Below are positions 9,141 to 30,805 of a DNA stretch of 32,000 nucleotides, piece after piece. How positions within the stretch are numbered: position 1 is the stretch's first letter; every line of letters begins with the position of its first letter. Location: NCBI RefSeq assembly GCF_003231495.1, contig NZ_PQWO01000032.1:1-32000 (forward strand), given 5' to 3'. The translations under genes and the position numbers were made by a program. The stretch comes from Acaryochloris thomasi RCC1774. Its GTDB lineage: Bacteria; Cyanobacteriota; Cyanobacteriia; Thermosynechococcales; Thermosynechococcaceae. The notes under the pieces are model-generated. The model did not search any database. It saw only the letters and a program-made list of their open reading frames with translations, and was not told where the DNA came from.

Positions 9141-9450
9141 TTTCTTCGGCATAGCATCAAGGCGATTGTTGGGTCTCGTTGAGCAAATGGCTGATGAGTC
9201 CAGTGAATCTGCTGTGGCTATTCTAAGGTCGCCAGACTTGCGAGATCGCCTTGTTTCTTCTGACGATGGCGTGGTTTTGGAGACCCAGATTAGGCCGGAT
9301 GGCATTCATCGGACTGTACTTGGTTCCGATAAGAATTTTTTCGCGAATATTGCCTCCGGTCCTGGTCGCAACACCTTCGATGGGATCGTGGCTGGTGCAT
9401 TGAGGTTGGTAAGTGAGAGCGATGGAGAAGGAGTGCGACCATGCAGATAG
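9133..9450 (+). CDS. Small hypothetical protein (105 aa)
   Basis: ATG 9133 (MSDFFGIASRR..). The upstream part of the track ORF (from 8971) looks non-coding. The 3' end overlaps the next start by 10 nt. Confidence 0.5.
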   Translation: MSDFFGIASRRLLGLVEQMADESSESAVAILRSPDLRDRLVSSDDGVVLETQIRPDGIHRTVLGSDKNFFANIASGPGRNTFDGIVAGALRLVSESDGEGVRPCR

Positions 9451-10973
9451 TGGTACAGAAAATAGGTGACAGCAGCGTTTTGGTGACACCTGACGGCCAG
9501 CCAATCCCATACGTTGATTGTGACGATTGGACGCTTCATTTGATGCCCCAGATTTTGATAAACAGTCGGGTTTCCTCCGTCTCTCTGATTAGGGCGAATC
9601 TGAAGTTGAGGAATGATGGCGCAGGTCCATTAGGGTTGCCGCATTTTACCTTTCATAACGTCCTGCCCATCGACGTTCAGATCACTCAGCCCTTCCCTAA
9701 CGAGAGCTTTTATGTCGCTGGGAGTGTTGATCGCAAGATGGGTTGGGAGTTTCCATTGCTAGAGAATCAGACCTGGGCCGAATTGTCTTTAACTTGGGAA
9801 GTTGATCAGAATCAGCCTTGGACGATCCATCACCGCATCAGATTCAATTTGGAGCATACACAGCAGGGTCATCTCTTCTCAATGGCGAGTGCCAACACTA
9901 TGTTTGGCATCAATTCTCAAAATGCGAAGGCGATCGCGCACTTCGATGAATCATCACTGGGTCATACATTCGCGAAAAGCGATGATTCGTTTCACTGCAG
10001 ATTTGATAAAAGTCACTTCCGTATTGATTTTGAGCAGACACTTGACCTCCAAAGCCATGCCTGGAGTGACGTGCCCCACCTTGAGTTGCTTGAGAATCAA
10101 ACCCAGCTCCACAATATCGAGCCAGCTACAACGTTTTCGACCTATCGCAAAGAGCATCTTTCTTGTGCTTGTTTAGAGATCCCCTCTGACGTTTTGCTTG
10201 AAGCCGTAGAAGATGCGCGACAAGAGACTCATTCATTGTCAGCGGGTCAGTACCACACTTCAAAAGCAGTGCGAAAGATTTGCGACTGGTGGAACCAGAA
10301 TGCCCCGGTCGAATCCTTTCGCCATGCGGGAGGCGTCGAGATTTGGTGTCGGGTCGAAGATGGTCCTGAATATTGGTCGGCTCAGGAGGAACGACCTGAA
10401 ACAGATATCAAGTGCCTCTTAAAGCTAGACCCGAACACCTGTGCCCGTTTTGGCGATCACTTTTTGATTTACTTCCTAGAGAAGCCATCGGAGAATCGCA
10501 TCGACGATAACGATACTCGCTATATCAACTATGTCGATGGAACAAGTTGCACGAATATCTGGGATGAAGTCGAATATAGCTACTTCTCTTGGCAGAGCTT
10601 GTCTGTACTTCCTACGATGTTTCCGGTTGCTTATGAGCAAGTGTTGGCTAAGGGATACAGCCTTACTTCGCCAGAGCGTTTAATTTCTCAGTACCAGAGT
10701 GGAGAGCGTCGTTTTCCGATCCTCGCGCTAAGAGGCGCTAACTTTTCTGGGATGGATTTACGAGGCATCGATTTATGGGAGAGCGATCTGCGGGGTGCCA
10801 ATTTTAGTGGTGCGAACCTTGAAGGTGCATGTCTGGTGGGTTGTGATTTGCGAGGGGTAGATTTCTCGTATGCCAATCTATCGCGCACTGATCTTCGTAA
10901 TGTGTGGATTAAAGCCACGAATCTCTATGGGGCCAATCTAGAGGGGGCAGATCCTTGGCCTCCAGGTGCTTAA
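9441..10973 (+). CDS. Large hypothetical protein with a C-terminal pentapeptide-repeat domain
   Basis: 510 aa with SD GGAGAAGGAG. The C-terminus reads YQSGERRFPILALRGANFSGMDLRGIDLWESDLRGANFSGANLEGACLVGCDLRGVDFSYANLSRTDL.. (A(D/N)LxX repeats). Confidence 0.8.
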   Translation: MQIVVQKIGDSSVLVTPDGQPIPYVDCDDWTLHLMPQILINSRVSSVSLIRANLKLRNDGAGPLGLPHFTFHNVLPIDVQITQPFPNESFYVAGSVDRKMGWEFPLLENQTWAELSLTWEVDQNQPWTIHHRIRFNLEHTQQGHLFSMASANTMFGINSQNAKAIAHFDESSLGHTFAKSDDSFHCRFDKSHFRIDFEQTLDLQSHAWSDVPHLELLENQTQLHNIEPATTFSTYRKEHLSCACLEIPSDVLLEAVEDARQETHSLSAGQYHTSKAVRKICDWWNQNAPVESFRHAGGVEIWCRVEDGPEYWSAQEERPETDIKCLLKLDPNTCARFGDHFLIYFLEKPSENRIDDNDTRYINYVDGTSCTNIWDEVEYSYFSWQSLSVLPTMFPVAYEQVLAKGYSLTSPERLISQYQSGERRFPILALRGANFSGMDLRGIDLWESDLRGANFSGANLEGACLVGCDLRGVDFSYANLSRTDLRNVWIKATNLYGANLEGADPWPPGA

Positions 10974-11026: not shown

Positions 11027-11644
11027 ATGCAATCAACTAATGCCAAAGCCTCTACGCCAGTTGACGAGATCCTTCTGCCAGCTCAGGCTGCGGCGTTCCT
11101 GGGTGTGACGGAGGAGCAGTTGCACAATGCTGTGTGCCAGGGTTATCTACCTGGGGCTTGCATTGATGGTCAGTGGCGGTTTAGCAAGCGCGGGCTGAGT
11201 AAGTTCTGCTGGCAAAGAAACAATCACAACGGTTCCGCGCCCTGGCTTGAGAACTCCTGTGGTCCCTACTGGTTGGGCGATTGGGCTGAACAAAAGGCAA
11301 AAGGTGTGATCGAGGCTTATGAGGCAGGGGAAAGATACTTCCCTGGACTCTCCATAAAAGGTGGACGTTTTGATGGTCAGGATCTTAGTGGTATTGATTT
11401 TTGGGAGTCCGGCTTGAAGGGTGCAAGCTTTTCTGGATGTATTCTCAAGCAGGCCATTTTTGTTGGTGCGGATCTTACCTCAGCCGTATTCAGGAATGCA
11501 GATCTATCCGATGCAAACCTTGAGGGAGCTGTGGTTGAGGATGCTGACTTCAGTGGAGCTATCCTGAATCGGACTAACTTTGCGGTCAGCTTGATGAGTG
11601 GAGCAAAGCTAGATGGAGTCAGTATCAGCATGGTCTCCTTCTGA
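11027..11644 (+). CDS. Excisionase-type HTH fused to a pentapeptide-repeat domain
   Basis: The N-terminus LPAQAAAFLGVTEEQLHNAVCQGYLPGACIDGQWRFSKRGL has an excisionase/MerR-like HTH pattern. It is followed by YEAGERYF and pentapeptide repeats. Confidence 0.75.
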   Translation: MQSTNAKASTPVDEILLPAQAAAFLGVTEEQLHNAVCQGYLPGACIDGQWRFSKRGLSKFCWQRNNHNGSAPWLENSCGPYWLGDWAEQKAKGVIEAYEAGERYFPGLSIKGGRFDGQDLSGIDFWESGLKGASFSGCILKQAIFVGADLTSAVFRNADLSDANLEGAVVEDADFSGAILNRTNFAVSLMSGAKLDGVSISMVSF

Positions 11645-11716: not shown

Positions 11717-12388
11717 TTGTGTAATGTAGTTGGAGCATGGCAGCTAGTGGAGTTAATCGACAGAAGCATTGCTGTGTCAGGGTCGAGTGAGATAAACCTT
11801 GAAGATGCTATATCCCTAATTAGTCTGGACAAAGAGCATATCCTCTCTGATGTAGGTAGGGGGAGGATAAAGGCAACTCGTGTGAATGGTGAATGGATGT
11901 TCGATCGTCAGGATTTATGTGTCTATCAGTACTACTACTATCCAGATTGTGATCAGTTAGAGCCATCAACTCTCTCTTTCCCGACGCCTTTGACCCCGGA
12001 GTCTGTATGGCGTGAGTACCAGCGAGGAGCGAGAGATTTCTCTTGCAGAGCAGTGAGCAACAATGCTGATTTTTCGTGTAAGTCATTGCCAGAAATTGAC
12101 TTTAATTATTCAAAGCTTGCGGGTGTTAACTTTGAAGGCTCAGACCTGAGGCAAGCCAACTTTCGCGATGCCAATATGTTTAGGGTCAACATGAGAAATA
12201 CAAAGCTGGCTGGGGCTAGCTTTGAGGGCGCTGAACTGCGAATCGTAGACTTCTCTGGTGCAGACCTAACCAATGTTAATTTCGGTGGTTCAAAAATCGG
12301 AAAGATTCAGCTCCAAGACGCAATCATTCGGAACACCCAGTTTTTCGAGGGAATTCTGTTGACAACAGTAAAGCCAGATTATCGGTAG
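11717..12388 (+). CDS. Excisionase-type HTH fused to a pentapeptide-repeat domain (start uncertain: TTG 11717 or GTG 11747)
   Basis: ISLDKEHILSDVGRGRIKATRVNGEWMFDRQDL, then YQRGARDF and repeats (VNFEGSDLRQANFRDANMFRVNMRNTKLAGASFEGAEL..). Confidence 0.75.
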   Translation: MCNVVGAWQLVELIDRSIAVSGSSEINLEDAISLISLDKEHILSDVGRGRIKATRVNGEWMFDRQDLCVYQYYYYPDCDQLEPSTLSFPTPLTPESVWREYQRGARDFSCRAVSNNADFSCKSLPEIDFNYSKLAGVNFEGSDLRQANFRDANMFRVNMRNTKLAGASFEGAELRIVDFSGADLTNVNFGGSKIGKIQLQDAIIRNTQFFEGILLTTVKPDYR

Positions 12389-12408: not shown

Positions 12409-12792
12409 ATGATTCAAGTTCCATCAGTAGAGCGGCAGATACCTCGGTACTGGTCTTCCAGTAAGCCAAAGTACCCTCTCCATGTGAGAACGGTGACTAT
12501 AACAGGGCACAGTGGTTTCATAACGGGCGTGGAGCAGTGTTTCTCAAGTGAGGGGATTGTATGGCGATACCAAATAACTTCCATTGAAGGCAGCGAAGTC
12601 ATTGTTTGGGATGACAATGGAGAGAAGGTGATAGATATTGCCCCAGATTCCAATCGTGATATCTACCAGCCCTCTTCAGAATTGGTAGCTCATCTCACGT
12701 CATTTGCCGATGAGCTTGAGCAACAAGAATTTAAGCGGGAACAGGAATCAGAACAAAAGGTTGATGAGGGTTTTGGTATTGATGATGACTGA
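12409..12792 (+). CDS. Small protein carrying the shared C-terminal module and acidic tail
   Basis: 127 aa. Residues encoded by 12577-12789 align with 1045-1263 (83% nt identity over a 42-nt core that I compared by eye). Ends ..KVDEGFGIDDD. Confidence 0.7.
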   Translation: MIQVPSVERQIPRYWSSSKPKYPLHVRTVTITGHSGFITGVEQCFSSEGIVWRYQITSIEGSEVIVWDDNGEKVIDIAPDSNRDIYQPSSELVAHLTSFADELEQQEFKREQESEQKVDEGFGIDDD

Positions 12793-13777: not shown

Positions 13778-16700
13778 TCAATACTCAAACCCTTCCTCTT
13801 GCTCCATTTCATACTCATGAGCCGCAAGCTCCTTCTCCAGCCAGGGACTTTCCTGCGCCCATTCATCCAGTGTCGAATAGCTCAAGTCGCTCAACTGATT
13901 ACCCCGCGCCAGCCAGTCGTCGATCCCCAGCTTGCCCTGGTCATTCCCTGGCATCTCGGCCACCTCCACCTTGGCTCCCTGTTGCTCTAGCAGCCGACCG
14001 AACCGATGCATTGCGATGGCAACATTCCGTAGTGTCTTGGTCTTCTCCGGTGGATCTTTGTCGAAGCACAGCACCACCGTCCGGCTCTGCCAGTTGTATT
14101 GCTTGAGATGTCCATCGAGATACCGCTGCTCATTGTCATCTTTGCTGTAGCCCCCATTGACGCCATTGAGAGCAATCGCATCAATACCCCTGGTATAGAT
14201 TGCAGCGCCCTTCTTGGCCCCTTCAGTAATCCAGACTTCCTTGGTTTCGTTCTTGATGTCATCGAGATCCTTGGCAAAGGCAAAGTGACTGCGGTGTGAG
14301 GGCAGGTTTTGTGACGCCTTTGGAATAGACTCGTACTTGCGTTCTTTCAGCTCTGGCTTGTAGTTTGCAGGCTTTTCCAGGTTCTGCACCTGACCATTTT
14401 TCAGGTAGATGGTGAAGCGATCCTTGTCCTTCTCCTCAGTGACGGGTGTATTAGGCTTGAGTTGCCCCCACGGTTCGCCATTGAACGGCCTGCCTTCACA
14501 CCAGAGTCCGCCCGCTTCAAGATGCTCGTATCGAGCTAAGAACTTTTCTACCTGAGCTGTGGTGTATTGGGTGCCGTGGCCTGCGAATTGCCCCATCGCG
14601 TAGTTGAGTAAATGTTCCTTGGCCCCTGGCCCATCGAGAGACCAGAAATACTTCGCAGCCACTTGGGGATGGATTGATGAATCTTTGACCAGCTCCACCC
14701 ACCGCTCTTTCTCGATGTAAGTGGGTCTCAGGTATTCCAGCGCTTGCAATCTCTGTGTTGTCCACACTCGTCCTGTCTTTTCTGTTGACTGCTGTGGAGC
14801 TTCGTTAGCTACTTGAGCTTCAGCCTCCAGCCTGTCCTTCTTCAGTACCGGCTTTTCAACTTGTGGCTGAGTCGGTGGCTGGGTGGGTTGCCTATCCTTC
14901 TTCAGTACTGGCTTCTCCACCACAGGTTTTGCCTTCTTCTGAGGTTTGGGTGTGACATCAATGCCCATATTCCGCATCTGCTCCGTTAATCTCTGCAGCT
15001 CCTCTCTCGACACCTCAGGATTGGACCTGAGTGTCTGAACGAGCAGAGCCAATCGCTGTACATCGGCCTGCTGCTCAATCCAGTTTTCAACGTGATCGCC
15101 TAGGCCCACAAAGACCTGCATGTGTTCGGCTATGGCATCCTGTTGCTGGGTCTCGTGAATCGCCTTAGCTAGCTCCTGCACCCCTTCAAGAGAAGGCTGC
15201 TGCCTCGTCATCTGCTCTAGGCTATGGCCCACATGGTTGAGCTTATCGGTGAGGCCCGACTCTAGCAGTGTCCCCACGTCGGCCTGCTGTTGAATTAGCT
15301 CAGCCAACTCAGCCATCTGTGGGTACTGCATCCACTGTTCCAACCTGCCGCTGACTTCAGTGATGACCTCAGCCACCTGCTCCATTGCTTGCTGTTTGGT
15401 GATGACCTCTGCCAACTGTTCGATGCCATGTTGTCCTCTGAGACGATCCATCACGCCCGAGAACTCAGCGGCCACCTCAGCAATGAGCTGTTGCTCCTGC
15501 CAGCCGTGTAATGCCTCCGCTAACTCCTGCACCTGTGGCCTGACGGTTGACGGTCCCGTGAACTCCCGAAGTAGCTCCATCACCTGAGCTTGATCGCCTG
15601 CAGCCATCGCCTCCACCATGCGCTGTTCGTTGGTCCACTGCCCCACAGCGTTAGTGATGTGATCTGCCACCCCTTTTGTGAGGCTCTGGTCAATCTGTAG
15701 CTGCAGAGCATCAAGCGTCTCTGAGATGAGGGGCAACGACTCAGCAAAGGTTTGTTCGATGTCACCTGAATGAATCACTTCAGCTAGTTCTTCTATACCC
15801 TCGAAAGTGATTCCTGATGGTCTTTGGTTCTCAACGACGCTAGCTAGCTCCTGCAGCTTTTCACCTAAGCCAGATTCAGCGATTACCTGCAGGTCCGCAT
15901 TCGTCTGAATCGCATCGGCGAGTTCAACGAGATTGTGATTCTGGCTTAGGTGCTGCAAGCGTTCTCCAAGTGCGGCACCCACCTCCAGCATGACCGCTTC
16001 AGCTTGGTTGTGTGAGATCGCATCTGCGAGTGAATCAATGGAGCTTGAGAGATCAGGTTGATGAACCTTCTCTTGAGCCAGCTCCAGTGATTTGTCGATG
16101 GTCAGTCCTAACTTTTCTAGCGCCTGATTGATGCCCGGTAGCGTTTCCGCCAATACTTCCTGAGCATTAAAAGTATTGATGTCGTTGGCTAGTTCGTTGA
16201 TGGAGCGTTTGAGGGCTGCATCTGATTGGTCTCTAGAGACGTTGGCAGGCTCGCCGTATCCGGTAGATCGATCGTCAGTGATGAGCGACCCGTTAGCCCG
16301 TGCCGCTTCAACTCTCCCACTAAGTCTTGCAACTGCTCCATCCAGTCTTGATTGGTGCCCAGCATCGAGACGTTGTTGAGCTGCGCGTCGTTGATTTGGG
16401 TCATCAAAGCGTCGAGCCTTCCGTAAAGCTGCTTGATGCTCTGGGCTAGGTCGTCGTTCTTCTTGCCCTTCAGCGCTTCGCTCAGTGCTTCGGTGAACTC
16501 CATCAGATGCCCGTTGAGAACCACTGGCATTGTATTCATCGACTGATTGACCAATTGATGCACCTTCTTGTGTCTGGCTTCGTTGTTCTCGTTGAGCTGT
16601 TGATTGTGCTGGATCAAGAGCCGATTCTGTTGCTCGACTGACATCAACCGTCCGTTGGCTGTCTCCAACTGCCTGCTTATGGTTTGGTTCTGCTTCTCGA

Positions 16701-17761
16701 CTGCCGTCAGCCTCTCGCTCATGACTTGGTTCTGCTGCTTGATCTCGTTCACGAGTGTTAGTAGTTCTTCCATGATTGATGTCCTCTGGTTTTGTGGGTT
16801 GAACGGTTGAAGCCTTTTCTGCCGTAGTCCTTTCTATGCCCTGCTGTTCTTCACGCACAGGGATAGAGACCACGTTTTCTTGAACGATATGCAGCCTGGG
16901 ATTTTGCAGGTCCACCCCCTGCGCTCTGTCGTGCCACTGCTGCTTTAATTTCTGGGGTTCTTCGAGTTCCTTGACGGGGCGGTTTTGCAGGCTAATGTGC
17001 TTTAGCTCTCGCCAGCCTGTAACGCCCTTGGCTTGGGCAATCGCTTCTATTTCCACGGTGCGCTGGGAGAAGGCCCGTAGCTGTTCTTTTGTATACCCAG
17101 TGATATCGAAGGTATCGTTTGGCTTCCAGACAATCCCGTAGCCAATCTGTTGTAGGTTGGCGGCGAGTTCATGTTGATACCGAACGCCTAAGTCACGTCG
17201 GCTATCTCGAAAGAAGCTTTCGTTCCGCAGTGCTCTCCATTTGCCATCACTGCAGTAGCTGGTGTTCATGATGATGGCGTGGGTATGGAGCTGCGGATCC
17301 ATCTTGCGACTGGTGGCATGGGTGAAGGTGGCAATCGCTAACTTGCCGGTGATCTCCTTCTGGCGTTTACCTCCGGTGCGGATCTCAACGAGGGAGTGAT
17401 TCAGTTCAATTTCCTTGAGGACCGCATCAACGGCTTCTCGATGAGCCTTAATCACTCGCGTGTCATTCCAGACCAGTGCTTGCAGGCTAACTGACTTGGG
17501 CGCAGAGAACGTGAGGTCGTAACCTCCCCTGGTTTTATTCCCGGCATTGCTGACGCCGCGTAGTCTGACGCCGTTGGGCGCTCTGCCGTGGATGAACCTT
17601 CGGAAGTCTTCTGCCTCCACTGCACCCTCAAGGCAAACCTGCGCGGCAAGGTTTCCATACCAGCGTGACCCACAGGCATTTTCTTCCTGCGCGTAGTAGG
17701 AATCTTCTTGTTCGTAGTAGGAGGCTGCTGCCTCTGGTCTGACGTTGTGGGCGGTGAGCAT
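13778..17761 (-). CDS. Relaxase (TrwC/TraI-like, MOBF-type N-terminus) with a repeat-rich linker and a C-terminal Toprim/DUF3854-like domain
   Basis: The N-terminus AAASYYEQEDSYYAQ (paired Tyr motifs) and HATSRKMDPQLHTHAIIMN (3-His motif) match the TrwC pattern. The C-terminus carries VWITEGAKKGAAI, VLCFDKD and GIDDWL (Toprim-like E, DxD). The middle holds ~8 degenerate LAExI repeats. Confidence 0.9.
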   Translation of the reverse strand: MLTAHNVRPEAAASYYEQEDSYYAQEENACGSRWYGNLAAQVCLEGAVEAEDFRRFIHGRAPNGVRLRGVSNAGNKTRGGYDLTFSAPKSVSLQALVWNDTRVIKAHREAVDAVLKEIELNHSLVEIRTGGKRQKEITGKLAIATFTHATSRKMDPQLHTHAIIMNTSYCSDGKWRALRNESFFRDSRRDLGVRYQHELAANLQQIGYGIVWKPNDTFDITGYTKEQLRAFSQRTVEIEAIAQAKGVTGWRELKHISLQNRPVKELEEPQKLKQQWHDRAQGVDLQNPRLHIVQENVVSIPVREEQQGIERTTAEKASTVQPTKPEDINHGRTTNTRERDQAAEPSHEREADGSREAEPNHKQAVGDSQRTVDVSRATESALDPAQSTAQREQRSQTQEGASIGQSVDEYNASGSQRASDGVHRSTERSAEGQEERRPSPEHQAALRKARRFDDPNQRRAAQQRLDAGHQSRLDGAVARLSGRVEAARANGSLITDDRSTGYGEPANVSRDQSDAALKRSINELANDINTFNAQEVLAETLPGINQALEKLGLTIDKSLELAQEKVHQPDLSSSIDSLADAISHNQAEAVMLEVGAALGERLQHLSQNHNLVELADAIQTNADLQVIAESGLGEKLQELASVVENQRPSGITFEGIEELAEVIHSGDIEQTFAESLPLISETLDALQLQIDQSLTKGVADHITNAVGQWTNEQRMVEAMAAGDQAQVMELLREFTGPSTVRPQVQELAEALHGWQEQQLIAEVAAEFSGVMDRLRGQHGIEQLAEVITKQQAMEQVAEVITEVSGRLEQWMQYPQMAELAELIQQQADVGTLLESGLTDKLNHVGHSLEQMTRQQPSLEGVQELAKAIHETQQQDAIAEHMQVFVGLGDHVENWIEQQADVQRLALLVQTLRSNPEVSREELQRLTEQMRNMGIDVTPKPQKKAKPVVEKPVLKKDRQPTQPPTQPQVEKPVLKKDRLEAEAQVANEAPQQSTEKTGRVWTTQRLQALEYLRPTYIEKERWVELVKDSSIHPQVAAKYFWSLDGPGAKEHLLNYAMGQFAGHGTQYTTAQVEKFLARYEHLEAGGLWCEGRPFNGEPWGQLKPNTPVTEEKDKDRFTIYLKNGQVQNLEKPANYKPELKERKYESIPKASQNLPSHRSHFAFAKDLDDIKNETKEVWITEGAKKGAAIYTRGIDAIALNGVNGGYSKDDNEQRYLDGHLKQYNWQSRTVVLCFDKDPPEKTKTLRNVAIAMHRFGRLLEQQGAKVEVAEMPGNDQGKLGIDDWLARGNQLSDLSYSTLDEWAQESPWLEKELAAHEYEMEQEEGFEY
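16189..16773 (-). CDS. Nested out-of-frame ORF (194 aa, coiled-coil-like) inside the relaxase linker
   Basis: ATG 16773 is preceded by AGAGGACATCAATC (SD GAGGA, 8-nt spacing). The product MEELLTLVNEIKQQNQVMSERLTAVEKQNQTISRQLE.. is heptad-like, whereas the relaxase frame here is low-complexity R/S/A/Q/E. Confidence 0.45.
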   Translation of the reverse strand: MEELLTLVNEIKQQNQVMSERLTAVEKQNQTISRQLETANGRLMSVEQQNRLLIQHNQQLNENNEARHKKVHQLVNQSMNTMPVVLNGHLMEFTEALSEALKGKKNDDLAQSIKQLYGRLDALMTQINDAQLNNVSMLGTNQDWMEQLQDLVGELKRHGLTGRSSLTIDLPDTASLPTSLETNQMQPSNAPSTN

Positions 17762-20932: not shown

Positions 20933-21793
20933 CTAGGCCGCTACAGCAACCGGCTGCAGTGCTGCAGCTTCCACTGCTGCGATGATTTCCTTCGCCGCCT
21001 TCTGAATGCGAGAGCCGGATTCCTTGAGCTGTGCGATCGCATCGTCGGTTCCGCTCATCCAGTCGCTAACGTAGGCAAAACTATAGTCACCGGAATCGAG
21101 GTCCAGGGCATTGAGGACCACGAAGGCGACTGATTCAGCCTCTAGCTCTAGAACAGACCGCTCGTTATGCATCCGGTAGTCTTGGGCAGAATGCATCAAC
21201 GCATGACCTAGCTCGTGGGCCATTGTTTTCGCTTGGTGCAACGGCGATAGCAGGGGGTTAATGGTGATTTCAATGCCTCCTGGTGCAAAGTAGCACTGAC
21301 CGTTAGGACCAGTAGAGTTAAACTGAGTCTTGAAGACCTTGCTATGAGCAAAGTCTCGGAGGGCGTTAAACAGTCCCTGATCGTCTCCTTGTATTGGGTT
21401 GCAGATATCGGGTAACTCTTCCCCATCTGTTTGGGAGATATCGAAGACCGTTGCCGTCTTAAATCCTGAGATGATCCGCTTTGAGTCGCCGCTCTCTTGG
21501 TCTTCAATCTTTCGGGTTACTGGAGCAAATATGGTGATGCCCTTCTCTCCCTTGCGGACCTGTCGGCCCATCTTCTGCCAGACGCGATAGCCTGCCACTC
21601 TAGACGCTTCAGGCATTTGCTCACGGATCATGACGATATTTCGGAACGAGTACTGATTAAAGCGGCTCTGGAAGGATAGATACTCCTGCCAGTCGCCGGA
21701 CGTTGCTAGGGCTGCAATACCGGCTTCGAGCTTGGCGAGGGCTTCGGTCTGCTTTTGCTCGGCGGCCGCTTTGTTGGCTTTGAATTTTGTCAT
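20933..21793 (-). CDS. ardC: ArdC-type antirestriction protein (N-terminal ssDNA-binding domain plus HExxH metalloprotease domain)
   Basis: 286 aa. YSFRNIVMIREQ..GYRVWQKMGRQVRKGEKGITIFAP matches the ArdC-N/DUF1738 pattern. The C-terminus carries MAHELGHALMH. Confidence 0.8.
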   Translation of the reverse strand: MTKFKANKAAAEQKQTEALAKLEAGIAALATSGDWQEYLSFQSRFNQYSFRNIVMIREQMPEASRVAGYRVWQKMGRQVRKGEKGITIFAPVTRKIEDQESGDSKRIISGFKTATVFDISQTDGEELPDICNPIQGDDQGLFNALRDFAHSKVFKTQFNSTGPNGQCYFAPGGIEITINPLLSPLHQAKTMAHELGHALMHSAQDYRMHNERSVLELEAESVAFVVLNALDLDSGDYSFAYVSDWMSGTDDAIAQLKESGSRIQKAAKEIIAAVEAAALQPVAVAA

Positions 21794-23323: not shown

Positions 23324-23671
23324 GTGAAACTGCCAAAACTGTTGCCATTCGGTGCAACCGTATTCCTGATCACCACTCGCACATCCTGGGCAGACAACAG
23401 CCTGGGTAGTTGCATCGTATCGGTGCTGTGTAGCGGGATCGCTTTCCTATATCTCGTATCAGCCTTTCAGCCCAAAGCTCTCTACTTCAATACCCGGTTT
23501 TTCGCGTTCTATTTCATCTCGCTAGCGTATCTGCTGGTGGAAGTTGCGATCGCACAATTTGATTCAGACCCCTATCAGGTGTTGTTTGCTGCCGCTGTCA
23601 CAGGGGTAGCGATGGTATCAGCGCTATTGGTTGAGCTGTTTTTCTTCATGAGGCAAAAGAAATGGATTTGA
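23324..23671 (+). CDS. Integral membrane protein (about 4 TM)
   Basis: 115 aa with a GTG start, hydrophobic throughout. The stop overlaps the AAA ATPase start (ATGGATTTGA). Confidence 0.6.
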   Translation: MKLPKLLPFGATVFLITTRTSWADNSLGSCIVSVLCSGIAFLYLVSAFQPKALYFNTRFFAFYFISLAYLLVEVAIAQFDSDPYQVLFAAAVTGVAMVSALLVELFFFMRQKKWI

Positions 23672-25125
23672 TTAACAGACTGCAGCAGGGCTATAGCGTA
23701 TTGGCCCTAGAATCCCCCTTCAGTGAACGGATGCGAGTGCTGGCGGATTTAGAGCAATGGTCAGAGCAGCCGATCTACTTTTGGAGTCCTGGCTATTCCA
23801 AAGTGCTGCAGTACAAGAATAACCGTCTGGTCAGCATCGGACAGATAGATCGCTCAGGCAGCATCAATAGTCCTATGGATTTACTCAATGAGGCAGGGAT
23901 CTACTTACTCGAAGGGGGGCTAGATAAATTCAACCATTTTGTCTGGGTGGATCTGTACCACCGACTCAGGGAAGGCTATACCGTCATTGCCTTGGATCCT
24001 GCTCCAGAGCTGCACGATGATTTACGCGCCATCATTCCCCTAGTGATTGATGCAGTACCTGAATATCGGACTGTAGAGCTATGGCTGTGCGAATATCTCA
24101 ATAGATCGCCGTCGCCGCGACTGGTAAGAGCATGTCTGGGCTTGCATCTTGGCGCACTAGAGCAAATATTGGATCGGGTGGACCACGGTGATGAAGATGC
24201 GATGGCCGAAGGCCGGTCGGAGACCATCGCAAATTACGTCATTGGTCAGAAAACCGCTCAGCTCAGCGCGGTCGGTCTAGAGTCGATGGGTCAGCCCGAT
24301 GTCGAGATTGGTGGCCTCGACCAACTCAAAGAAATGCTGCACAAAACCACCAAGCTGTTCAGCCCAGAGGCAAGAGAAGCGGGCCTCAACTATCCCAAAG
24401 GGCTTATTCTCTGGGGTCTCCCCGGTACAGGTAAATCTTTAACAACCAAGACCGCCGCGCATTTGTTGGGTATGCCGCTGCTGGCAACTGACTGGAGCCA
24501 GATTATAGACGACAACAATCCAGCCAAAGCAGCAGCTAACTTGAGAGCCATCATTCAAATTGCGGAAGTTCTCTCGCCCTGCGTCCTGGCCTGGGATGAC
24601 TTTGAGAAGATGCCCCTTGGCGCACTGCACGGCATTTTGCTCACCTGGATGCAGGAGCGGACTAAGCCTGTGTATATCATCAGCAGCGTCAACCGTCTTG
24701 AGAAGCTGCCGCCCGAGATGATCCGGGCCGGTCGCTTTGACCAGATCGTATTTGTCGATCTGCCGAAAGAAGGAGAGCGGCAGGAGATCATCGCGCTTCA
24801 CCTGGCGCGATACACCGAGAGTGTTGAGTTCTCAAAGCTGGACTGGCACAACCTAATTAGTGCCTTCCGCAACTGCACGGCGGCTGAAATAGCTGGTGCT
24901 GTCAAGCAAGCTGCTGAAGAAGCTTTTTGTCAGGATAGGGCGGGGCAGATCACCGTGCAGGATTTGGTGCATCAGCGCAGCTTGTTTGTGCCCTCGATGA
25001 TTCGAGATGAGGATAGTATGTTAGCCATCCGCAAGCTGGCGCACTTGGCTCGCCCTGCCAGCGGTCCCGACAACTCTCAATGGCGAGTACCGCCGAGCGA
25101 GATGTTTGAGTTTATGGAGGATTAA
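23662..25125 (+). CDS. AAA+ ATPase (classic AAA clade) with an unknown ~230-aa N-terminal domain
   Basis: Walker A is LILWGLPGTGKSLT and Walker B is CVLAWDDFEK. The second region of homology is PPEMIRAGRFDQIVFVDLP. Confidence 0.85.
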   Translation: MDLINRLQQGYSVLALESPFSERMRVLADLEQWSEQPIYFWSPGYSKVLQYKNNRLVSIGQIDRSGSINSPMDLLNEAGIYLLEGGLDKFNHFVWVDLYHRLREGYTVIALDPAPELHDDLRAIIPLVIDAVPEYRTVELWLCEYLNRSPSPRLVRACLGLHLGALEQILDRVDHGDEDAMAEGRSETIANYVIGQKTAQLSAVGLESMGQPDVEIGGLDQLKEMLHKTTKLFSPEAREAGLNYPKGLILWGLPGTGKSLTTKTAAHLLGMPLLATDWSQIIDDNNPAKAAANLRAIIQIAEVLSPCVLAWDDFEKMPLGALHGILLTWMQERTKPVYIISSVNRLEKLPPEMIRAGRFDQIVFVDLPKEGERQEIIALHLARYTESVEFSKLDWHNLISAFRNCTAAEIAGAVKQAAEEAFCQDRAGQITVQDLVHQRSLFVPSMIRDEDSMLAIRKLAHLARPASGPDNSQWRVPPSEMFEFMED

Positions 25126-25654: not shown

Positions 25655-27808
25655 ATGAACCGATTTTTCTTCACCACCTTACTCCTCACCTCTGTTGGTC
25701 TAACGACCCCGCTATCTGCCTTGCGGGTGAATGCTCAGCAGTCTTCAGGTCTGCCCTTAACCATTGAGGGCGGTCACGGTACGAAAAAGACGATGACCGT
25801 CTCATTAGAGCAGAAGCCAACGAAGAACCTAGGCTTGAACTTGAAGGTCAAGGGTGCTGAAGGTGCCCAGGAAGGCTGGCTCTATGTCAACGGTCAGGTC
25901 GTTGCTCCGCTTTTCTCTTGGTACGCCAATCCATCCAACCGCAACCAGATTGCATCCGTTCGGCTGGTGACGCCTGGGGCAGTTTGGCGGGCCGGTCTCA
26001 ACGATGTCACCTTTGTCGCCCGCAACAACAATACGTTTAAGGTACTCACCGCTAATACTTACGAAACCGAGCGTAAGACCCATTTCACAAACATAGCGAA
26101 TCGCAATCGAACATCAACGATCTCAGCCCGAAGGCCAGTCAGACGCAGCTCGTCCTACACCTTGACCCAAGCGCCGCAAGCGATCGCCACCGCATCGGTG
26201 GGCAGAAAGACACTGACGTTAACGGACTTGATCGCCACTGTTACCCAGCCTCACGACGTTCCTGCTCCGGGAGTTCCACAAAGTTTTGATTTCCAGCAAT
26301 ACCCCAGACCTAGTGTTGCGTCACGGCCTGAGCGATTGGATCAGCCACTTCCAGCCGGTTCTGGCTACGTCAATACCTGGAATCATATCGATTCCCTGCA
26401 GAGGGATGCAGCCCCGAACGTCAAAGTAGAGATGGGCAGCATGTTCTTATCTTTCTTCAAGGATGGCAAGTGGCATACAACAGAGATGGGACCGCCGTGC
26501 CGTGCCTATACCTATGAATATCCAACGATAGGCACGGGTAAAGATACCGATGTTGCTGCTTGCGAGAACGGGGCTGCTTTTGCGGGGCTAGGTCTAAAGG
26601 GCTGGAATAAGCCAAATCGCCATACCCACGGCTGGGTTCAAAACGGCAGAGTTGGCGTGAATTCTGAAGATGTTGAGCACTTTATGGTTTGGGCCTCTGC
26701 TCGGACTCAACCGATTGACCCGGGTAAGCCTGCAAATCTTGATGGGCAGAACTACCAGTATGGGATTGGCGGGGATTACTTCAATTCTGATGAAGGTCGG
26801 GGTCGCAAGGCAGCGGTTCACTCCAGACGCCAGATCGTAGGCAGTCAATGGAAAACGCTGGTGGGTCACAACATGACGCCGCAAACCATCAAAACGATGT
26901 GCGCTCAGGGTAATTTGCCGTCAGAGCTGCCGCTGGTCGGTGGATGCAGCAGTTCTTCGGGGGCGTTTCGTGCCGGTACGAGCAGTACCCCGAATCCATC
27001 GCCGAAATCCCTTGCTAAAGCCACGGGTCAAAGCTCTCGAACTCAGACGGCTTCAGTACCTTTCAAGCGCACAGGAACCGGAGTGCTGACGCTCACTCAA
27101 TTAAGAGATGCGGTGACTAAGCCCCACGAGCAAGCTCCGGCACCGACTGTCCCTAGCAGCTACTGCCAAGCCTATAACGGCAAACCAAGCACCCTCAATC
27201 ATCCCAGCAACTCAAGCTGTAAGAATGAATTTGGTGATGATCAGTTCAAAAAGTACCGAACGATAAACCCTTGGTTTGTGGCCTACAGCCGCACAAAAAC
27301 ACCGGACACCATTGAAATGGGGGATATGTACATTTCAGTTCTCAAGCGGGGCGTGTGGACAACTCACAACTTTGGCCCACCGGGTCAGGCTTATTTATTT
27401 AAGACAGAATCCCTCAACAAGCGGGAGGCGAAAGATGTTGCCACCCTCGGTAACGGTGTCTCGAAGCTGGGATACGGGTTAGATAAATGGCAGAATCCTG
27501 CGCTCAGCGCCCACGGCTGGCCGGGTCCACATTGGGATATCGCGCTCAATGATGCTGAGCACATGATGGTGTGGGTCGATGCTAGAACCCAGAAGGAAGG
27601 CACTCATGCTGTCGGTGCCGGTCTGGACCTGCGGGACAATGTGCTCAAAACAGGTCTGCCAGCGGCCATCAGAACCCGCCAACGTTTCCTTGGTCCCCAG
27701 TGGACAACGATTGTGGGTCACAATATCCACCCTGACCAGCTCGCAACTATCTGTCAGAAGTATGGGTATCCCAGTGCCTTGAAGGTTGAGGGTTGTCCCC
27801 AGCAGTAG
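25655..27808 (+). CDS. Secreted protein with an N-terminal signal peptide and two tandem ~260-aa paralogous domains
   Basis: Signal peptide-like MNRFFFTTLLLTSVGLTTPLSALRVNAQQ. Repeat 1 runs ..TLTLTDLIATVTQPHD..GHNMTPQTIKTMCAQGNLPSELPLVGGC. Repeat 2 runs ..VLTLTQLRDAVTKPHE..GHNIHPDQLATICQKYGYPSALKVEGC. Confidence 0.75.
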   Translation: MNRFFFTTLLLTSVGLTTPLSALRVNAQQSSGLPLTIEGGHGTKKTMTVSLEQKPTKNLGLNLKVKGAEGAQEGWLYVNGQVVAPLFSWYANPSNRNQIASVRLVTPGAVWRAGLNDVTFVARNNNTFKVLTANTYETERKTHFTNIANRNRTSTISARRPVRRSSSYTLTQAPQAIATASVGRKTLTLTDLIATVTQPHDVPAPGVPQSFDFQQYPRPSVASRPERLDQPLPAGSGYVNTWNHIDSLQRDAAPNVKVEMGSMFLSFFKDGKWHTTEMGPPCRAYTYEYPTIGTGKDTDVAACENGAAFAGLGLKGWNKPNRHTHGWVQNGRVGVNSEDVEHFMVWASARTQPIDPGKPANLDGQNYQYGIGGDYFNSDEGRGRKAAVHSRRQIVGSQWKTLVGHNMTPQTIKTMCAQGNLPSELPLVGGCSSSSGAFRAGTSSTPNPSPKSLAKATGQSSRTQTASVPFKRTGTGVLTLTQLRDAVTKPHEQAPAPTVPSSYCQAYNGKPSTLNHPSNSSCKNEFGDDQFKKYRTINPWFVAYSRTKTPDTIEMGDMYISVLKRGVWTTHNFGPPGQAYLFKTESLNKREAKDVATLGNGVSKLGYGLDKWQNPALSAHGWPGPHWDIALNDAEHMMVWVDARTQKEGTHAVGAGLDLRDNVLKTGLPAAIRTRQRFLGPQWTTIVGHNIHPDQLATICQKYGYPSALKVEGCPQQ

Positions 27809-27809
27809 T

Positions 27810-28997
27810 TCAGTCAATTTCCCAGCCGTCGTCTTCGACCTCGATCTCCGGGTCGATCTCTGAGTAGCGTTCTGGGAAAAGCTCCTGTTCATAGGACTCG
27901 AACATTCTGATATCTTCAGAGGTCACCGCATATTGAACTCTGTCGTTTGTCTCAGTGAAAATAACGCCCCGTTCATCTGTGGCTGAGATAGTGAGCTTAT
28001 CGTCTGAGAACTCAAGCACATAGTCGTCGTTAACCAGTCGATTGACTCCCTTGTCTTTGGCCTCTTCCCGATAGAAGTTTGCGACATCTGAGAAGGTTTC
28101 AATCGTGCTTTGATCTAGCTCATTGTCCTTATCGAGTGCTGGCTCTGGTGCTGGGTAAACCCACGGCTCGATTTCCCTGCCGCTTACCTGTGAGACCAGT
28201 CGTTCGAGTAATGTTGCCATCTGGAAGGGGCCAACGCCACCCGGTACCGGCGTCAAATGCTGGGGAATGTCGTAGGCAGAGCGACTGACATCACCGCGAG
28301 GTTTTCCTTCGCCGGGAATGAAGCCTGCATCGACGACTAGGCGGTGTTCGGGGATGATGTGTTGCTCATCCAAAAGCTCGGGTGTACCTGTGGCTGAAAC
28401 GACGATATTCGCTTTACGGGTTTGGGTTTCGTCATCTCCGATTTCGATTTCTATGGTGTCGATACCAGCTTCTTTGAGGAGTTTGACGACTCCTTCGCCC
28501 ACGTAGCCGCCAGCGCCAACGACAGCTACGGTATCTCCTTCCTGAGCGAAGGATTCGACTAAGCGGTAAATTGTCTCAGAAGTAGCCGAGGTAGGGAAGT
28601 AGGGATTATCGCTGCGCATCCCATCGATGTCTTTCTCGAAAGAGATTTGCGGTAGTAGCTTCTTTAAGTCGTCAGGAATTGGATTCTGGACAATCAAACC
28701 AACAGAGTTTGCATTGGCCTCTATCAATAGATTCCTAAAGACATCCGGCGTAGTGAGAGAATCAAGTATAGGTTGTTTAACTTGACAGCCAAGTGCTGAA
28801 AATGTTTTCGCTTTATGCTCTGTCGAAAATCGAGCGGCTTCGTATTTTGCAAGTTCAATGGGGTCTTGTTCTGTTTCAGGCGGTAGGAAGCGAATAATTG
28901 TTACCTGTTCCTGGTTGCAGATGTTTTGAAACTCAGCCAGCCTGGATTTAACTTGTTTGAGGATAGAACTACCGTTGACTTTAGATGTCACGGGCAA
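27810..28997 (-). CDS. FolD-like methylenetetrahydrofolate dehydrogenase/cyclohydrolase homologue fused to the shared C-terminal module and acidic tail
   Basis: VGLIVQNPIP, KDIDG, VAVVGAGGYVGEGVVKLL, IVVSATG and TPVPGGVGPFQMATLLERL parallel FolD motifs. The last 68 aa (27813-28016) resemble 1045-1263 and end EVEDDGWEID. Confidence 0.75.
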   Translation of the reverse strand: MPVTSKVNGSSILKQVKSRLAEFQNICNQEQVTIIRFLPPETEQDPIELAKYEAARFSTEHKAKTFSALGCQVKQPILDSLTTPDVFRNLLIEANANSVGLIVQNPIPDDLKKLLPQISFEKDIDGMRSDNPYFPTSATSETIYRLVESFAQEGDTVAVVGAGGYVGEGVVKLLKEAGIDTIEIEIGDDETQTRKANIVVSATGTPELLDEQHIIPEHRLVVDAGFIPGEGKPRGDVSRSAYDIPQHLTPVPGGVGPFQMATLLERLVSQVSGREIEPWVYPAPEPALDKDNELDQSTIETFSDVANFYREEAKDKGVNRLVNDDYVLEFSDDKLTISATDERGVIFTETNDRVQYAVTSEDIRMFESYEQELFPERYSEIDPEIEVEDDGWEID

Positions 28998-29469
28998 GAA
29001 CTTCCAAAATATCTGCTACAGGAGAGAGTCTAATTTTGGTGTTCAGCTCTTCCACTTCATTGGGCCTGAGAACCCACCATTCAGCGCTCCAGGGTTCTAT
29101 ATGCTCAGGTAGAGGCCACGGTAACGTAACCCGCAGCCATCGCTCTGGCGTGGTCTGGTTCTCGTAGGTATTGGCCTGTGAAAATCTTCCGTAGTGACAG
29201 ATCCATGTCACCTTCTGAGTGTTCGCCTCATTTAAGTAGATAGGGTATTGTTCTCGGACGGCGAGGGCTAAAGCTTCAAAGTCGATTGAGACATCATGCT
29301 CCATCGATTTGTTGCTGTGCAGGCCAGAAGCAACAACAATGACTTCTTCTTTCTGTTCGTCCCTATAAATTCTCAAGAGACAGTGACACGAAGCATCTTC
29401 TTCCCGCCAGTGAAAGAGGGTCTCCACCACTGGCGCTAGCTTGTCTGTCTTGACGACTTGATTAACCAT
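28981..29469 (-). CDS. Hypothetical protein (162 aa)
   Basis: Start at ATG 29469 after a strong SD (GGAGGTCAGCCAATG), overlapping the GT2 stop (ATGGTTAA). The track start at 29643 is unlikely. The 3' end overlaps the FolD-like start by 17 nt. Confidence 0.6.
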   Translation of the reverse strand: MVNQVVKTDKLAPVVETLFHWREEDASCHCLLRIYRDEQKEEVIVVASGLHSNKSMEHDVSIDFEALALAVREQYPIYLNEANTQKVTWICHYGRFSQANTYENQTTPERWLRVTLPWPLPEHIEPWSAEWWVLRPNEVEELNTKIRLSPVADILEVLARDI

Positions 29470-30298
29470 TGGCTGACCTCCGAAATCCGGGTATCGATAC
29501 TTGAGCCTTGTCCTGATACTTGCAGATGGCCTCGGGCATCCAGTCTGCCCAGCCTTGCGCCATTCCATCATACCCGTGACGCCCCTTGTAGAGCTGCTGT
29601 AGCTCCTGCGCCCACTGCCCATAGTTTGAGCGACCGATTTCACCTTCAGAGGTCTGCACGTAATCTACCAGCACTTGAGCGTTAAGTCCTATCTCCCGGC
29701 CACCGGCCACGCACTGAACAAAGTACTCATAATCGCAGAATACCCGGTAGTCAGGGTTCCAGTGGGGTGCCCCCTGGCGTCGGTGGGTGAACCCGTTGCT
29801 ATCGAACAGCGATCGCTGAGCAATCAGGTCCGCGATTGTGTCATCTGCCTGGGGTGAGATAAAAGGCTTTCCTGTTTTGACCACTTGCCCTTCGCTGATC
29901 ACGTCTCGCCGTCGCCACTGCTGCGGCAAACAGCCGAAGTGCTTAGGGTGTTGCTCAAACCATTGGAGCGTATTGGCGACAAACTCAGGTCTTAGCTCGT
30001 TGTCATCATCGAGGTAGCAGACGAGATCGCCCTGAGCGTTATCAATACCGAGGTTACGAGCAATGCATAGGCCGAAGCCATCTTGAGGGTGATCGATTTC
30101 GATGTAGTGGGTGTGGAAGGGAAATCTTGAGTTTTGCAGTAGGTCTCGGGTGGTGAGGTCTTTGCCGTCATTGATGACGACCCACTCAAAATCGAGACAG
30201 GTCTGATGGAGCAGGCTGGGGAGTGCGATCGCTCGAAGCAGATCGGGGCGGTGGTGGGTAGCAGTGATGATGGATAGAGTGAATGGCTGTTCTCCTGT
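29462..30298 (-). CDS. GT2-family glycosyltransferase reading frame with no canonical start codon (possible pseudogene or non-canonical initiation)
   Basis: The frame is open for 279 codons from the TAA at 30299-30301. It reads ..FTLSIITATHHRPDLL..FEWVVINDGKD..LVCYLDDDNE.. (GT-A fold, DxD). The first ATG/GTG/TTG is TTG 29929, downstream of the DxD. Confidence 0.55.
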   Translation of the reverse strand, partial: TGEQPFTLSIITATHHRPDLLRAIALPSLLHQTCLDFEWVVINDGKDLTTRDLLQNSRFPFHTHYIEIDHPQDGFGLCIARNLGIDNAQGDLVCYLDDDNELRPEFVANTLQWFEQHPKHFGCLPQQWRRRDVISEGQVVKTGKPFISPQADDTIADLIAQRSLFDSNGFTHRRQGAPHWNPDYRVFCDYEYFVQCVAGGREIGLNAQVLVDYVQTSEGEIGRSNYGQWAQELQQLYKGRHGYDGMAQGWADWMPEAICKYQDKAQVSIPGFRRSANG

Positions 30299-30631
30299 TT
30301 AGATGTAGAAACTTTCCAGTCTCTTCAGCATAAGCATTCATGCATTGTCAGGCTCTATAAATTGACCCGTCCGTTTTGTTCGTGAATCTGTATGACAAAT
30401 GTAGATGTCAATATTGGTGAACCAAATGAAACAAGATCAAGACCATAGCCAGAGCAAGTCTAAAGTTCAGCAGATAACCGACTTTATCGTAATCGCGATG
30501 CTTGTCTTTCCAATTGCAGGCTGGTTGGGTAACTTGCTTCAGCCAGCGCCACCCGATAATCAAGTTCCGGCTGCATGGAGTGACGAGCGCTAGCAATAAT
30601 CAAGTCTGAAGCCTGTCCTACTGTGGTTGTG

Positions 30632-30805
30632 TCAAGCTTCAGGTTTTCCCCTCTCCTGTGCCCTCTCCTGCGCTGCCACAGCCCTCGCCTCAGCATTCCT
30701 CTGGTTCCACTGCTGTCGGGTTTCGTCGGGGTTGGTGGACTTGGGTGGTGCAAATGTTCGGTGGCTGTAGTTGCCTCTGCCTTCTTTAGCTTTCATGGTG
30801 TTCAT
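30632..30805 (-). CDS. Small basic Gln/Arg-rich ORF overlapping the kinase stop
   Basis: MNTMKAKEGRGNYSHRTF.. The start overlaps the kinase 3' end by ~20 nt. Supported only by position. Confidence 0.3.
   Translation of the reverse strand: MNTMKAKEGRGNYSHRTFAPPKSTNPDETRQQWNQRNAEARAVAAQERAQERGKPEA

Follow-up and report, generated by a model that had tools for sequence, protein, structure and literature searches.

A divergent FolD paralog in a conserved operon of mobile elements, with a glycosyltransferase and a protein of a new family

Introduction

Enzymes of the FolD/MTHFD family, which are bifunctional 5,10-methylene-tetrahydrofolate dehydrogenases and 5,10-methenyl-tetrahydrofolate cyclohydrolases and include the NAD-dependent MTHFD2, share a two-domain fold, catalytic Lys, Gln, and Asp residues, and a PGGVGP loop. 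Plasmids were expressly left out of a recent survey of FolD evolution across the family (PMC11064299). Here we describe a FolD-like protein having the same fold, residues, and loop that is encoded together with a family 2 glycosyltransferase (GT2) and a protein of 162 aa at positions 27810-30298, on the minus strand, of a 32,000-nucleotide stretch of DNA from the cyanobacterium Acaryochloris thomasi RCC1774 (contig NZ_PQWO01000032.1, positions 1 to 32,000), hereafter the window. Unlike the described enzymes of the family, it belongs to a separate clade that is confined to mobile elements.

Other described systems resemble parts of this locus. In T-even phages, hydroxymethylcytosine is glucosylated by means of a dCMP hydroxymethylase and α- and β-glucosyltransferases, and the likeness lies in folate one-carbon chemistry beside a glycosyltransferase on a mobile element facing restriction. 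Conjugative type IV secretion systems (T4SSs) export plasmid-encoded proteins, such as PsiB, SSB, and ParB of the F plasmid, in a manner dependent on the coupling protein (PMC8406263). The FolD-like protein is similar to these in being plasmid-encoded, in bearing a C-terminal appendage that is also present on the relaxase, and in having a type IV coupling protein (T4CP) encoded on the same element. Its modeled architecture, a disordered tail behind a small folded domain, further recalls T4SS effectors with C-terminal signals.

Little is understood about the conjugative plasmids of cyanobacteria and actinobacteria, and no description of this three-gene module was found in the literature that we searched. 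What is new is a FolD-family enzyme in a conserved mobile-element context, together with a dedicated glycosyltransferase and a partner protein whose domain family is new. We tentatively favor a reading, possible though short of probable, in which the genes supply conjugative elements with an accessory enzyme module whose center is a neofunctionalized FolD paralog, docked in this element to the transfer machinery. If the enzyme does act at or pass through the transfer apparatus, the repertoire of conjugation-associated proteins would extend to one-carbon chemistry, and a candidate recruitment motif would be at hand. The module is carried by the model strains Acaryochloris marina MBIC11017 (plasmid pREB3) and Trichormus variabilis ATCC 29413 (plasmid C), and is therefore directly testable.

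Results and discussion

Three overlapping genes on a conjugative element

The window is from a cyanobacterial conjugative or mobilizable element, in agreement with the first-pass annotation of its sequence. Pfam searches identified a TrwC (MOBF) relaxase fused to DUF3854 (13778-17761, minus strand), whose C terminus reads ...EQEEGFEY, and a T4CP with a basic C terminus (1256-2923, plus strand). The HIP1 octamer was observed 15 times in the window versus 0.5 times expected. No near-identical plasmid DNA turned up when PLSDB was searched with the operon by megablast.

Three consecutive and co-directional open reading frames (ORFs) occupy 27810-30298 on the minus strand. The first encodes the GT2 (29462-30298, a stop-to-stop ORF of 278 codons), the second the 162-aa protein (28981-29469), and the third the FolD-like protein (27810-28997). 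The start of the 162-aa ORF (ATG, 29469-29467) overlaps the end of the GT2 ORF (TAA, 29464-29462), the joint sequence being ATGGTTAA at 29462-29469. The 162-aa ORF itself ends with the stop codon at 28983-28981, and the FolD-like ORF may begin either at TTG 28997, giving a 17-nt overlap and a protein of 395 aa, or at GTG 28991, giving an 11-nt overlap and a protein of 393 aa. The latter is probably the true start, since it agrees with the N termini of orthologs (MTSEVRGG...) and with the 393-aa database protein P0001. The overlap-linked operon had been described earlier with the 17-nt value, which is exact for the TTG start. The extent of the operon to 30298 holds for the three ORFs and fails as a gene boundary, as 30298 is merely the beginning of the codon that follows an in-frame TAA (30299-30301) and not the start of the GT2 gene.

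The FolD-like protein and its subfamily

At the level of sequence, the FolD-like protein is a member of a distinct FolD subfamily. Its membership in the family was borne out by a match to PF02882 at 76.1 bits against a cut-off of 27 and by matches to FolD sequences in the PDB at E 2e-15. The AlphaFold2 (AF2) model, with a mean predicted local distance difference test (pLDDT) score of 89.5, revealed FolD, MTHFD1, and MTHFD2 as hits when searched with Foldseek (E 2e-18, template modeling (TM) scores of 0.72-0.82). The divergence already noted in the first-pass annotation was equally evident. PF00763 scored 24.2 bits, below its gathering threshold of 32.8, and all NCBIfam FolD equivalog cut-offs were missed, the best score being 72.7 bits versus 401. 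In a search of 5.8 billion proteins, the subfamily was recovered as 54 clusters at E ≤ 3.5e-35, and canonical FolDs followed from E 3.9e-19. Public annotation names the protein bifunctional FolD and thereby mislabels the clade as the housekeeping enzyme.

The residues of the protein were compared with a canonical FolD alignment and with 20 diverse members of the subfamily. The catalytic Lys, Gln, and Asp of FolD were retained as K60, Q102, and D121/D123, which align with the residues of the Escherichia coli enzyme (K54, Q98, and D121; K56, Q100, and D125 in the human enzyme). The motifs of the catalytic core are S56xxxK60, Q102, the Asp pair D121/D123 of KDIDG, GxGGxVGxG, G185-D186, and PVPGGVGP, and among these S56, K60, Q102, D121, D123, G185-D186, and P248-P255 (the PVPGGVGP loop) were invariant across the 20 members. 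In contrast to FolD/MTHFD enzymes, the subfamily has an invariant Ser (S56) in place of the Tyr of YxxxK, a deletion of 7 residues following the DxDG motif, and the sequence (I/L)(E/D)..GDD, including the invariant G185-D186, in place of the HS(R/K)T that binds the 2'-phosphate of NADP. Since acidic residues and Gly-Asp stand where HS(R/K)T would be, we infer that the protein prefers NAD over NADP. Between the window and a second locus carrying the operon (L002), the nonsynonymous (dN) and synonymous (dS) substitution rates of the FolD gene were 0.30 and 2.3.

A conserved operon of mobile elements

Gene contexts were gathered from assemblies, annotated plasmids, and a hidden Markov model survey of fetched loci, which are numbered here with the prefix L. 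The subfamily FolD gene was present at 17 distinct loci. All three genes occur together at nine: the window, L001, L002, L003, L004 (where the module is fragmented), L009 (A. marina pREB3), L014, L021 (Aerosakkonema), and L025. The 162 protein of L014 is only about 27% identical to that of the window. The 162 and FolD genes alone were found on the chromosome of Oscillatoria PCC 10802, in a Streptomyces integrative and conjugative element (ICE) beside its T4CP gene, and on the Pseudonocardia plasmid pLS2-2. FolD and glycosyltransferase genes lacking the 162 gene were found on Nostoc PCC 7120 plasmid beta (with FolD frameshifted), T. variabilis plasmid C, pTCL26-01_A, and L026, while pCENA543a has the FolD gene only, just after the T4CP operon. 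Two gene orders were seen, GT-162-FolD and 162-FolD-GT. The co-occurrence that had been proposed as a check of the operon was therefore found, in the form of the nine trio loci and the pairwise versions, and the trio is a conserved operon specific to mobile elements. With the catalytic residues of FolD kept as well, two of the outcomes that the first-pass annotation had named as refuting its reading did not occur.

Directly 5' of FolD in five loci devoid of the 162 gene (L010, L012, L013, L020, and L026, all Nostocales-type plasmids) is a gene encoding 75-87 aa with the pattern M.(K/H)Y(V/I)C...W...EV...F.TE(E/Q)(E/S)A..WF.... We considered this small protein as a member of the 162 family and rejected the assignment at an hhalign probability of 0.2%. 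A small, tightly linked gene precedes the subfamily FolD in 17 of 17 loci; every subfamily FolD thus has a small upstream partner, since either the 162 gene or the 75-87-aa gene is always there. Such an obligatory partner gene further distinguishes the subfamily from FolD/MTHFD enzymes. When the ORFs of the first 24 fetched loci were clustered all against all, the only recurrent families were the FolD-like protein, the 162 family, the glycosyltransferase, and the T4CP, and the module is in this respect self-contained.

The subfamily was detected by tblastn on 16 of 72,556 plasmids (from Acaryochloris, Nostoc, Trichormus, Tolypothrix, Microchaete, and Pseudonocardia), 15 of which were typed as conjugative or mobilizable. 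T4CP or relaxase genes often adjoin the trio or its pairwise subsets, both on cyanobacterial plasmids and on actinobacterial ICEs and plasmids. The module lies directly 3' of a TrwC relaxase gene in L001 and directly 3' of an unrelated Mob_Pre relaxase gene in L021.

The C-terminal extension and a terminal motif shared with the relaxase

In the AF2 model, the FolD core (residues 1-280, encoded at 28152-28991) is followed by a disordered linker (residues 285-291), an additional folded domain (residues 294-376, 27864-28112), and a disordered acidic tail (residues 379-393) with pLDDT below 50. The additional domain is predicted as a helix, five strands, and a helix with pLDDT of 80-89. The stretch SEIDPEIEVEDDGWEID, containing the motif DDGWE, is encoded at 27813-27863. 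The subfamily differs from FolD/MTHFD enzymes also in its C-terminal extensions, which range from 0 to about 270 aa and are hypervariable. A Pfam scan of these extensions and of the neighboring proteins lacking an assignment gave no match.

The first-pass annotation had attributed to the FolD-like protein the same C-terminal module and acidic tail as relaxase-associated proteins, and only the very end of this likeness survived. Two plus-strand ORFs of the window, one encoding a 408-aa protein directly 5' of the T4CP (40-1266, ending ...IDDGFEFGDD) and one a 127-aa protein (12409-12792, ending ...VDEGFGIDDD), share a C-terminal module of 67 aa with 55% identity (E 1e-22). The 127-aa protein had no homolog outside the element in a search of 5.8 billion database proteins. 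Identity of the FolD C-terminal domain with this module was rejected (BLAST E > 0.2, hhalign probability 5%); by eye, the order of secondary structure elements in the two looks co-linear. What is held in common is the terminal motif, within the last 5-7 residues only. Among the 14,163 residues of the window's 73 long ORFs, the pattern [DE][DE]G[FW][EG] is found four times and always within the last 10 residues of a protein, as EEGFE in the relaxase, DDGWE in the FolD-like protein, DDGFE in the 408-aa protein, and DEGFG in the 127-aa protein. About 1e-3 occurrences would be expected among 22 proteins, versus the four observed at C termini. The motif is specific to the element and absent from many orthologs.

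This distribution makes the tail a candidate docking or recruitment signal, with the T4CP as a candidate receptor. Acidic-aromatic C-terminal tips serve in docking elsewhere, as in the ...DDDIPF terminus of bacterial SSB and the tail of TraD that binds TraM. As in those cases, several proteins of one DNA-processing system end in a short acidic tail that is disordered and contains an aromatic residue, and the analogy suggests a common docking site. It differs in that the sequence is not the same and in that the tail is here on the putative substrates, with the end of the T4CP being basic. With respect to T4SS-exported proteins, [DE][DE]G[FW][EG] is not among the described signals, nor was there a Pfam match to known signal domains.

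The mechanism that we favor would have the FolD paralog carry out NAD-linked hydride transfer and/or cyclohydrolysis on a one-carbon carrier of the methylene- or methenyl-tetrahydrofolate type, in a complex with the 162-aa protein, and the glycosyltransferase would glycosylate either the product of the paralog or a common acceptor. Our best guess for the acceptor would be a nucleoside- or nucleic-acid-type substrate tied to DNA transfer or establishment. In this element, the enzyme may attach to the coupling protein or the relaxosome by means of its extra C-terminal domain and its acidic tail, which is disordered and has the motif DDGWE, and either chemistry at the transfer machinery or export of the enzyme through it would follow.

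Several observations weigh against this mechanism. C-terminal extensions are missing from about half of the subfamily and hypervariable where present, and docking therefore cannot be essential for the core function. Recruitment to the transfer apparatus, which had been suggested in the first-pass annotation, gains support from the statistically solid terminal motif and from the predicted disorder of the tail behind a folded domain, but the tails of the relaxase and FolD do not co-vary in Nostoc pTCL26-01_A. The exchange of Tyr for Ser and the 7-residue deletion could mean a different substrate or a loss of cyclohydrolase activity. In the model strain PCC 7120, the FolD-like gene of pCC7120beta is split, as a frameshift or pseudogene, into annotated ORFs of 246 and 159 aa (L010, 8992-10294), while an intact version of 396 aa is found on plasmid C of T. 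variabilis ATCC 29413. One copy is chromosomal without conjugation genes nearby. The 162 family is also found alone, in an actinobacterial island and, in Floridaenema, after a C5-methyltransferase fusion. Lastly, the loci were sampled through homology to the genes of the module, and the counts of contexts are biased to that extent.

The 162-aa protein

The 162-aa protein had been left unassigned in the first-pass annotation, and so it stays after the searches made here. Neither Pfam, NCBIfam, PHROGs, nor PADLOC gave a match to the family, even at E ≤ 10 across 33 members, and the family profile matched no sequence in the PDB. The AF2 model of the protein (pLDDT 76.7, predicted TM score 0.77), when searched with Foldseek against the PDB and BFVD, gave no significant fold match. 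A resemblance to half of an EEP fold was considered and rejected, the partial hits being insignificant (E ≥ 0.003, TM about 0.3).

A word-indexed search found only nine close homologs, and a scan of the collection with a narrow 162 alignment returned only three genome loci and one metagenome locus. A profile search of 1.84 billion representatives extended the family to 121 clusters, 38 of them at E ≤ 1e-10. Besides the start Met, residues W21, H29, L31, R33, S48, G94, F96, and S97 are invariant, and at least 90% of the sequences keep C30, N53, W89, and H92, a pattern that looks like a catalytic or ligand-binding site. Several members carry the domain in other arrangements. Protein P0131 is a natural fusion of a GT2, the 162 domain, and a 190-aa extension with an acidic-aromatic tail, the extension having no similarity to any fetched sequence. 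P0217 has DUF6166 added to the 162 domain, P0163 is a tandem duplication of the domain, and P0247 joins it to a nucleoside-hydrolase-like domain of borderline score (33.7 bits versus a cut-off of 34.2).

The constant presence of a small gene directly 5' of FolD, and its exchange for an unrelated 75-87-aa family in Nostocales, would also suit a conflict module, in which an enzymatic effector is paired with a swappable small immunity, antitoxin, or chaperone partner and delivered by the T4SS, or in which the element carries a defense or anti-defense function. The hypervariable C-terminal extensions of the enzyme fit such a role as well; T4SS effectors of Xanthomonas reportedly carry receptor-binding C-terminal domains (XVIPCD). 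A lone 162-family gene also lies in an actinobacterial island with TIR, HepT/MNT, and HNH genes. However, none of the three proteins of the operon matches PADLOC, and the polar residues that are invariant in the 162 family look more like a catalytic or ligand-binding site than like those of an immunity protein. Fusion of the 162 domain to a glycosyltransferase would be odd for an immunity protein, and a toxin of the FolD type is hard to rationalize where host FolD is abundant. We consider a conflict module unlikely.

Comparison with DNA hypermodification

The operon had been likened at first to the T-even logic of folate-dependent hydroxymethylation followed by glycosylation, and this analogy was not supported. 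The T-even system depends on a thymidylate-synthase-like hydroxymethylase, whereas the module has none: as had been noted before, no thymidylate-synthase or hydroxymethylase was recognized by Pfam among the scanned ORFs of the window, and clustering of the first 24 fetched loci revealed no fourth recurrent family, thymidylate-synthase-like or otherwise. The T4 glucosyltransferase is of the GT-B fold, in contrast to the GT-A/GT2 transferase of the module. The conserved hub is FolD here rather than a one-carbon transferase; it belongs to every version of the module and is no dispensable supplier. Unlike the T-even phage genes, the FolD subfamily and the 162 family had no phage homologs, with no member of either in 50,697 phage records.

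A looser form of the idea is that plasmid DNA or nucleotides are hypermodified against restriction, with a folate-derived one-carbon unit placed on a base by the 162-aa protein as the missing transferase and then glycosylated by the GT2. Neighboring genes often act in DNA metabolism or anti-restriction, and this speaks for it. In the window there is an ArdC-like anti-restriction protein having an ArdcN domain and an M78 peptidase (20933-21793, minus strand). L003 encodes uracil-DNA glycosylase (UDG) and DNA polymerase III subunits, pREB3 a PD-(D/E)XK nuclease, and L020 a C5 DNA methyltransferase and a DnaB-like helicase, while in L022 a C5-methyltransferase fusion is located 5' of a lone 162 gene. 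The fusions of the 162 domain to a glycosyltransferase (P0131) and to the nucleoside-hydrolase-like domain (P0247), as well as the invariant His, Arg, and Ser and the near-invariant Asn53 and His92 of the family, are likewise in keeping with a transferase of this kind. On the other hand, no thymidylate-synthase-like protein or hydroxymethylase, enzyme of the dNTP pool, or DNA-binding domain is recurrent in any locus. The glycosyltransferase is similar only to the N-terminal halves of polysaccharide-type GT2 enzymes, the model of the 162-aa protein matches no known transferase fold, and the absence of both families from phages counts here as well. Methylene-tetrahydrofolate is already supplied by the host, yet FolD is the invariant hub, and modification at the level of nucleotides would mark the chromosome too. 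Hypermodification thus seems rather improbable to us. Its most elaborate version is more doubtful still: there, the FolD paralog and the 162-aa protein would together constitute a new folate-dependent one-carbon transferase acting on transferred DNA or nucleotides, the GT2 would add a sugar, restriction would be evaded in a manner coupled to transfer, and the tail would be a new cyanobacterial T4SS signal.

At L022 (4907-8453), the methyltransferase fusion is a protein of 977 aa, and the lone 162-family gene that directly follows it is itself followed by a gene for an nSTAND1-WD40 NTPase; neither FolD nor a glycosyltransferase is encoded there.

The glycosyltransferase and its start

The assignment of the first gene product as a GT2 was sound, PF00535 matching at 64.4 bits against a cut-off of 23.3. 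Its DxD motif is DDD at residues 97-99. The protein is a soluble GT-A enzyme without a membrane segment, and solved or named GT2 enzymes resemble its N-terminal half only. The glycosyltransferases of the window and of T. variabilis plasmid C are 47% identical over 268 residues (E 2e-87), and comparison of their sequences shows the glycosyltransferases of the module to be a dedicated orthologous clade.

A soluble transferase dedicated to a self-contained module would be expected if the operon made a small molecule, such as a modified nucleotide-sugar or a pterin or folate derivative bearing a sugar, serving as a cofactor, protectant, or signal, with the tail being incidental. Cyanobacteria make pterin glycosides. 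The pterin-binding determinants K, Q, D, and PGGVGP are kept in the FolD-like protein, but the Tyr that stacks on the p-aminobenzoate ring is lost. The actinobacterial versions of the module have no glycosyltransferase, and small-molecule synthesis leaves unexplained both the tight association with T4CP genes, relaxase genes, and mobile elements and the terminal motif that is common to the relaxase. We judge this alternative to be improbable.

The GT2 frame has no ATG, GTG, or TTG before 29929, and a mechanical ORF call therefore yields only 155 aa. Five orthologs lack a canonical start before the conserved N-terminal strand LSIITAT: those of the window (29462-30298, minus strand), L001 (2522-3376), L002 (6363-7184), RefSeq pREB3 (L009, 7643-8515), and L014 (1827-2660). 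These are all of the orthologs in which the glycosyltransferase is the first gene, and pREB3 is a finished RefSeq plasmid. Gene callers truncate or miss such genes. Orthologs whose glycosyltransferase gene comes after FolD have an ATG or TTG at an aligned position where each of the five start-less genes has TTC. In the window this TTC is at 30281-30283 with AGGAG 8 nt upstream, and a Shine-Dalgarno-like GGAG is found 6-8 nt upstream of the TTC in the window, L001, L002, and L009, with none in L014.

Between the window and L002, the first 40 codons of the glycosyltransferase gene had a dN of 0.023 and a dS of 0.37, compared with 0.10 and 0.83 for the entire gene, and dN/dS was well below 1 for both the glycosyltransferase and FolD. 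Judged by this substitution pattern, purifying selection acts on the 5' region that lacks a start, and the region is probably translated. Frameshifting or readthrough as a common start mechanism was rejected, as the upstream frames and stops differ among the orthologs. The intergenic stretch 5' of the operon (30299-30785, minus strand) contains an in-frame mini-ORF of 10 codons that ends at the TAA before the GT2 frame, and scans of this region for a σ70-like promoter, a terminator, and Rfam families gave no match. The conserved lack of a canonical start is a small, separate puzzle in translation initiation.

The missing start codon might alternatively be read as decay, along with the frameshifted copy in PCC 7120, the fragmented L004, and the public annotation as bifunctional FolD. 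The operon would then be ordinary cargo, comprising a duplicated housekeeping folD and a polysaccharide glycosyltransferase placed beside it by chance, with the GT2 a decaying pseudogene. This is largely refuted, and very improbable, given the large score gap to canonical FolD, the NCBIfam cut-offs missed by a wide margin (72.7 bits versus 401), the retention of the operon even where the 162 protein is only about 27% identical, the orthology of the glycosyltransferase family across loci, the purifying selection on the start-less 5' region, and the existence of a natural GT-162 fusion.

Other genes of the window

A 717-aa protein encoded on the plus strand (25655-27808) has a signal peptide and a clear internal duplication and is without a Pfam match. 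Its stop codon (27808) abuts that of FolD (27810), and a gene for 739 aa is in the equivalent convergent position in L002. Upstream of it, an AAA ATPase (23662-25125, plus strand) resembles the PADLOC defense component IetA (E 2.6e-16). A transposase-like gene located 3' of the T4CP gene (4224-5424, minus strand) is split into two overlapping ORFs of 265 and 187 aa and interrupts that region. Directly 5' of the tail-bearing 127-aa ORF are the genes for three pentapeptide-repeat proteins in a row (9441-10973, 11027-11644, and 11717-12388, plus strand), one of which has an N-terminal HTH_17 domain; these proteins are possible DNA mimics.

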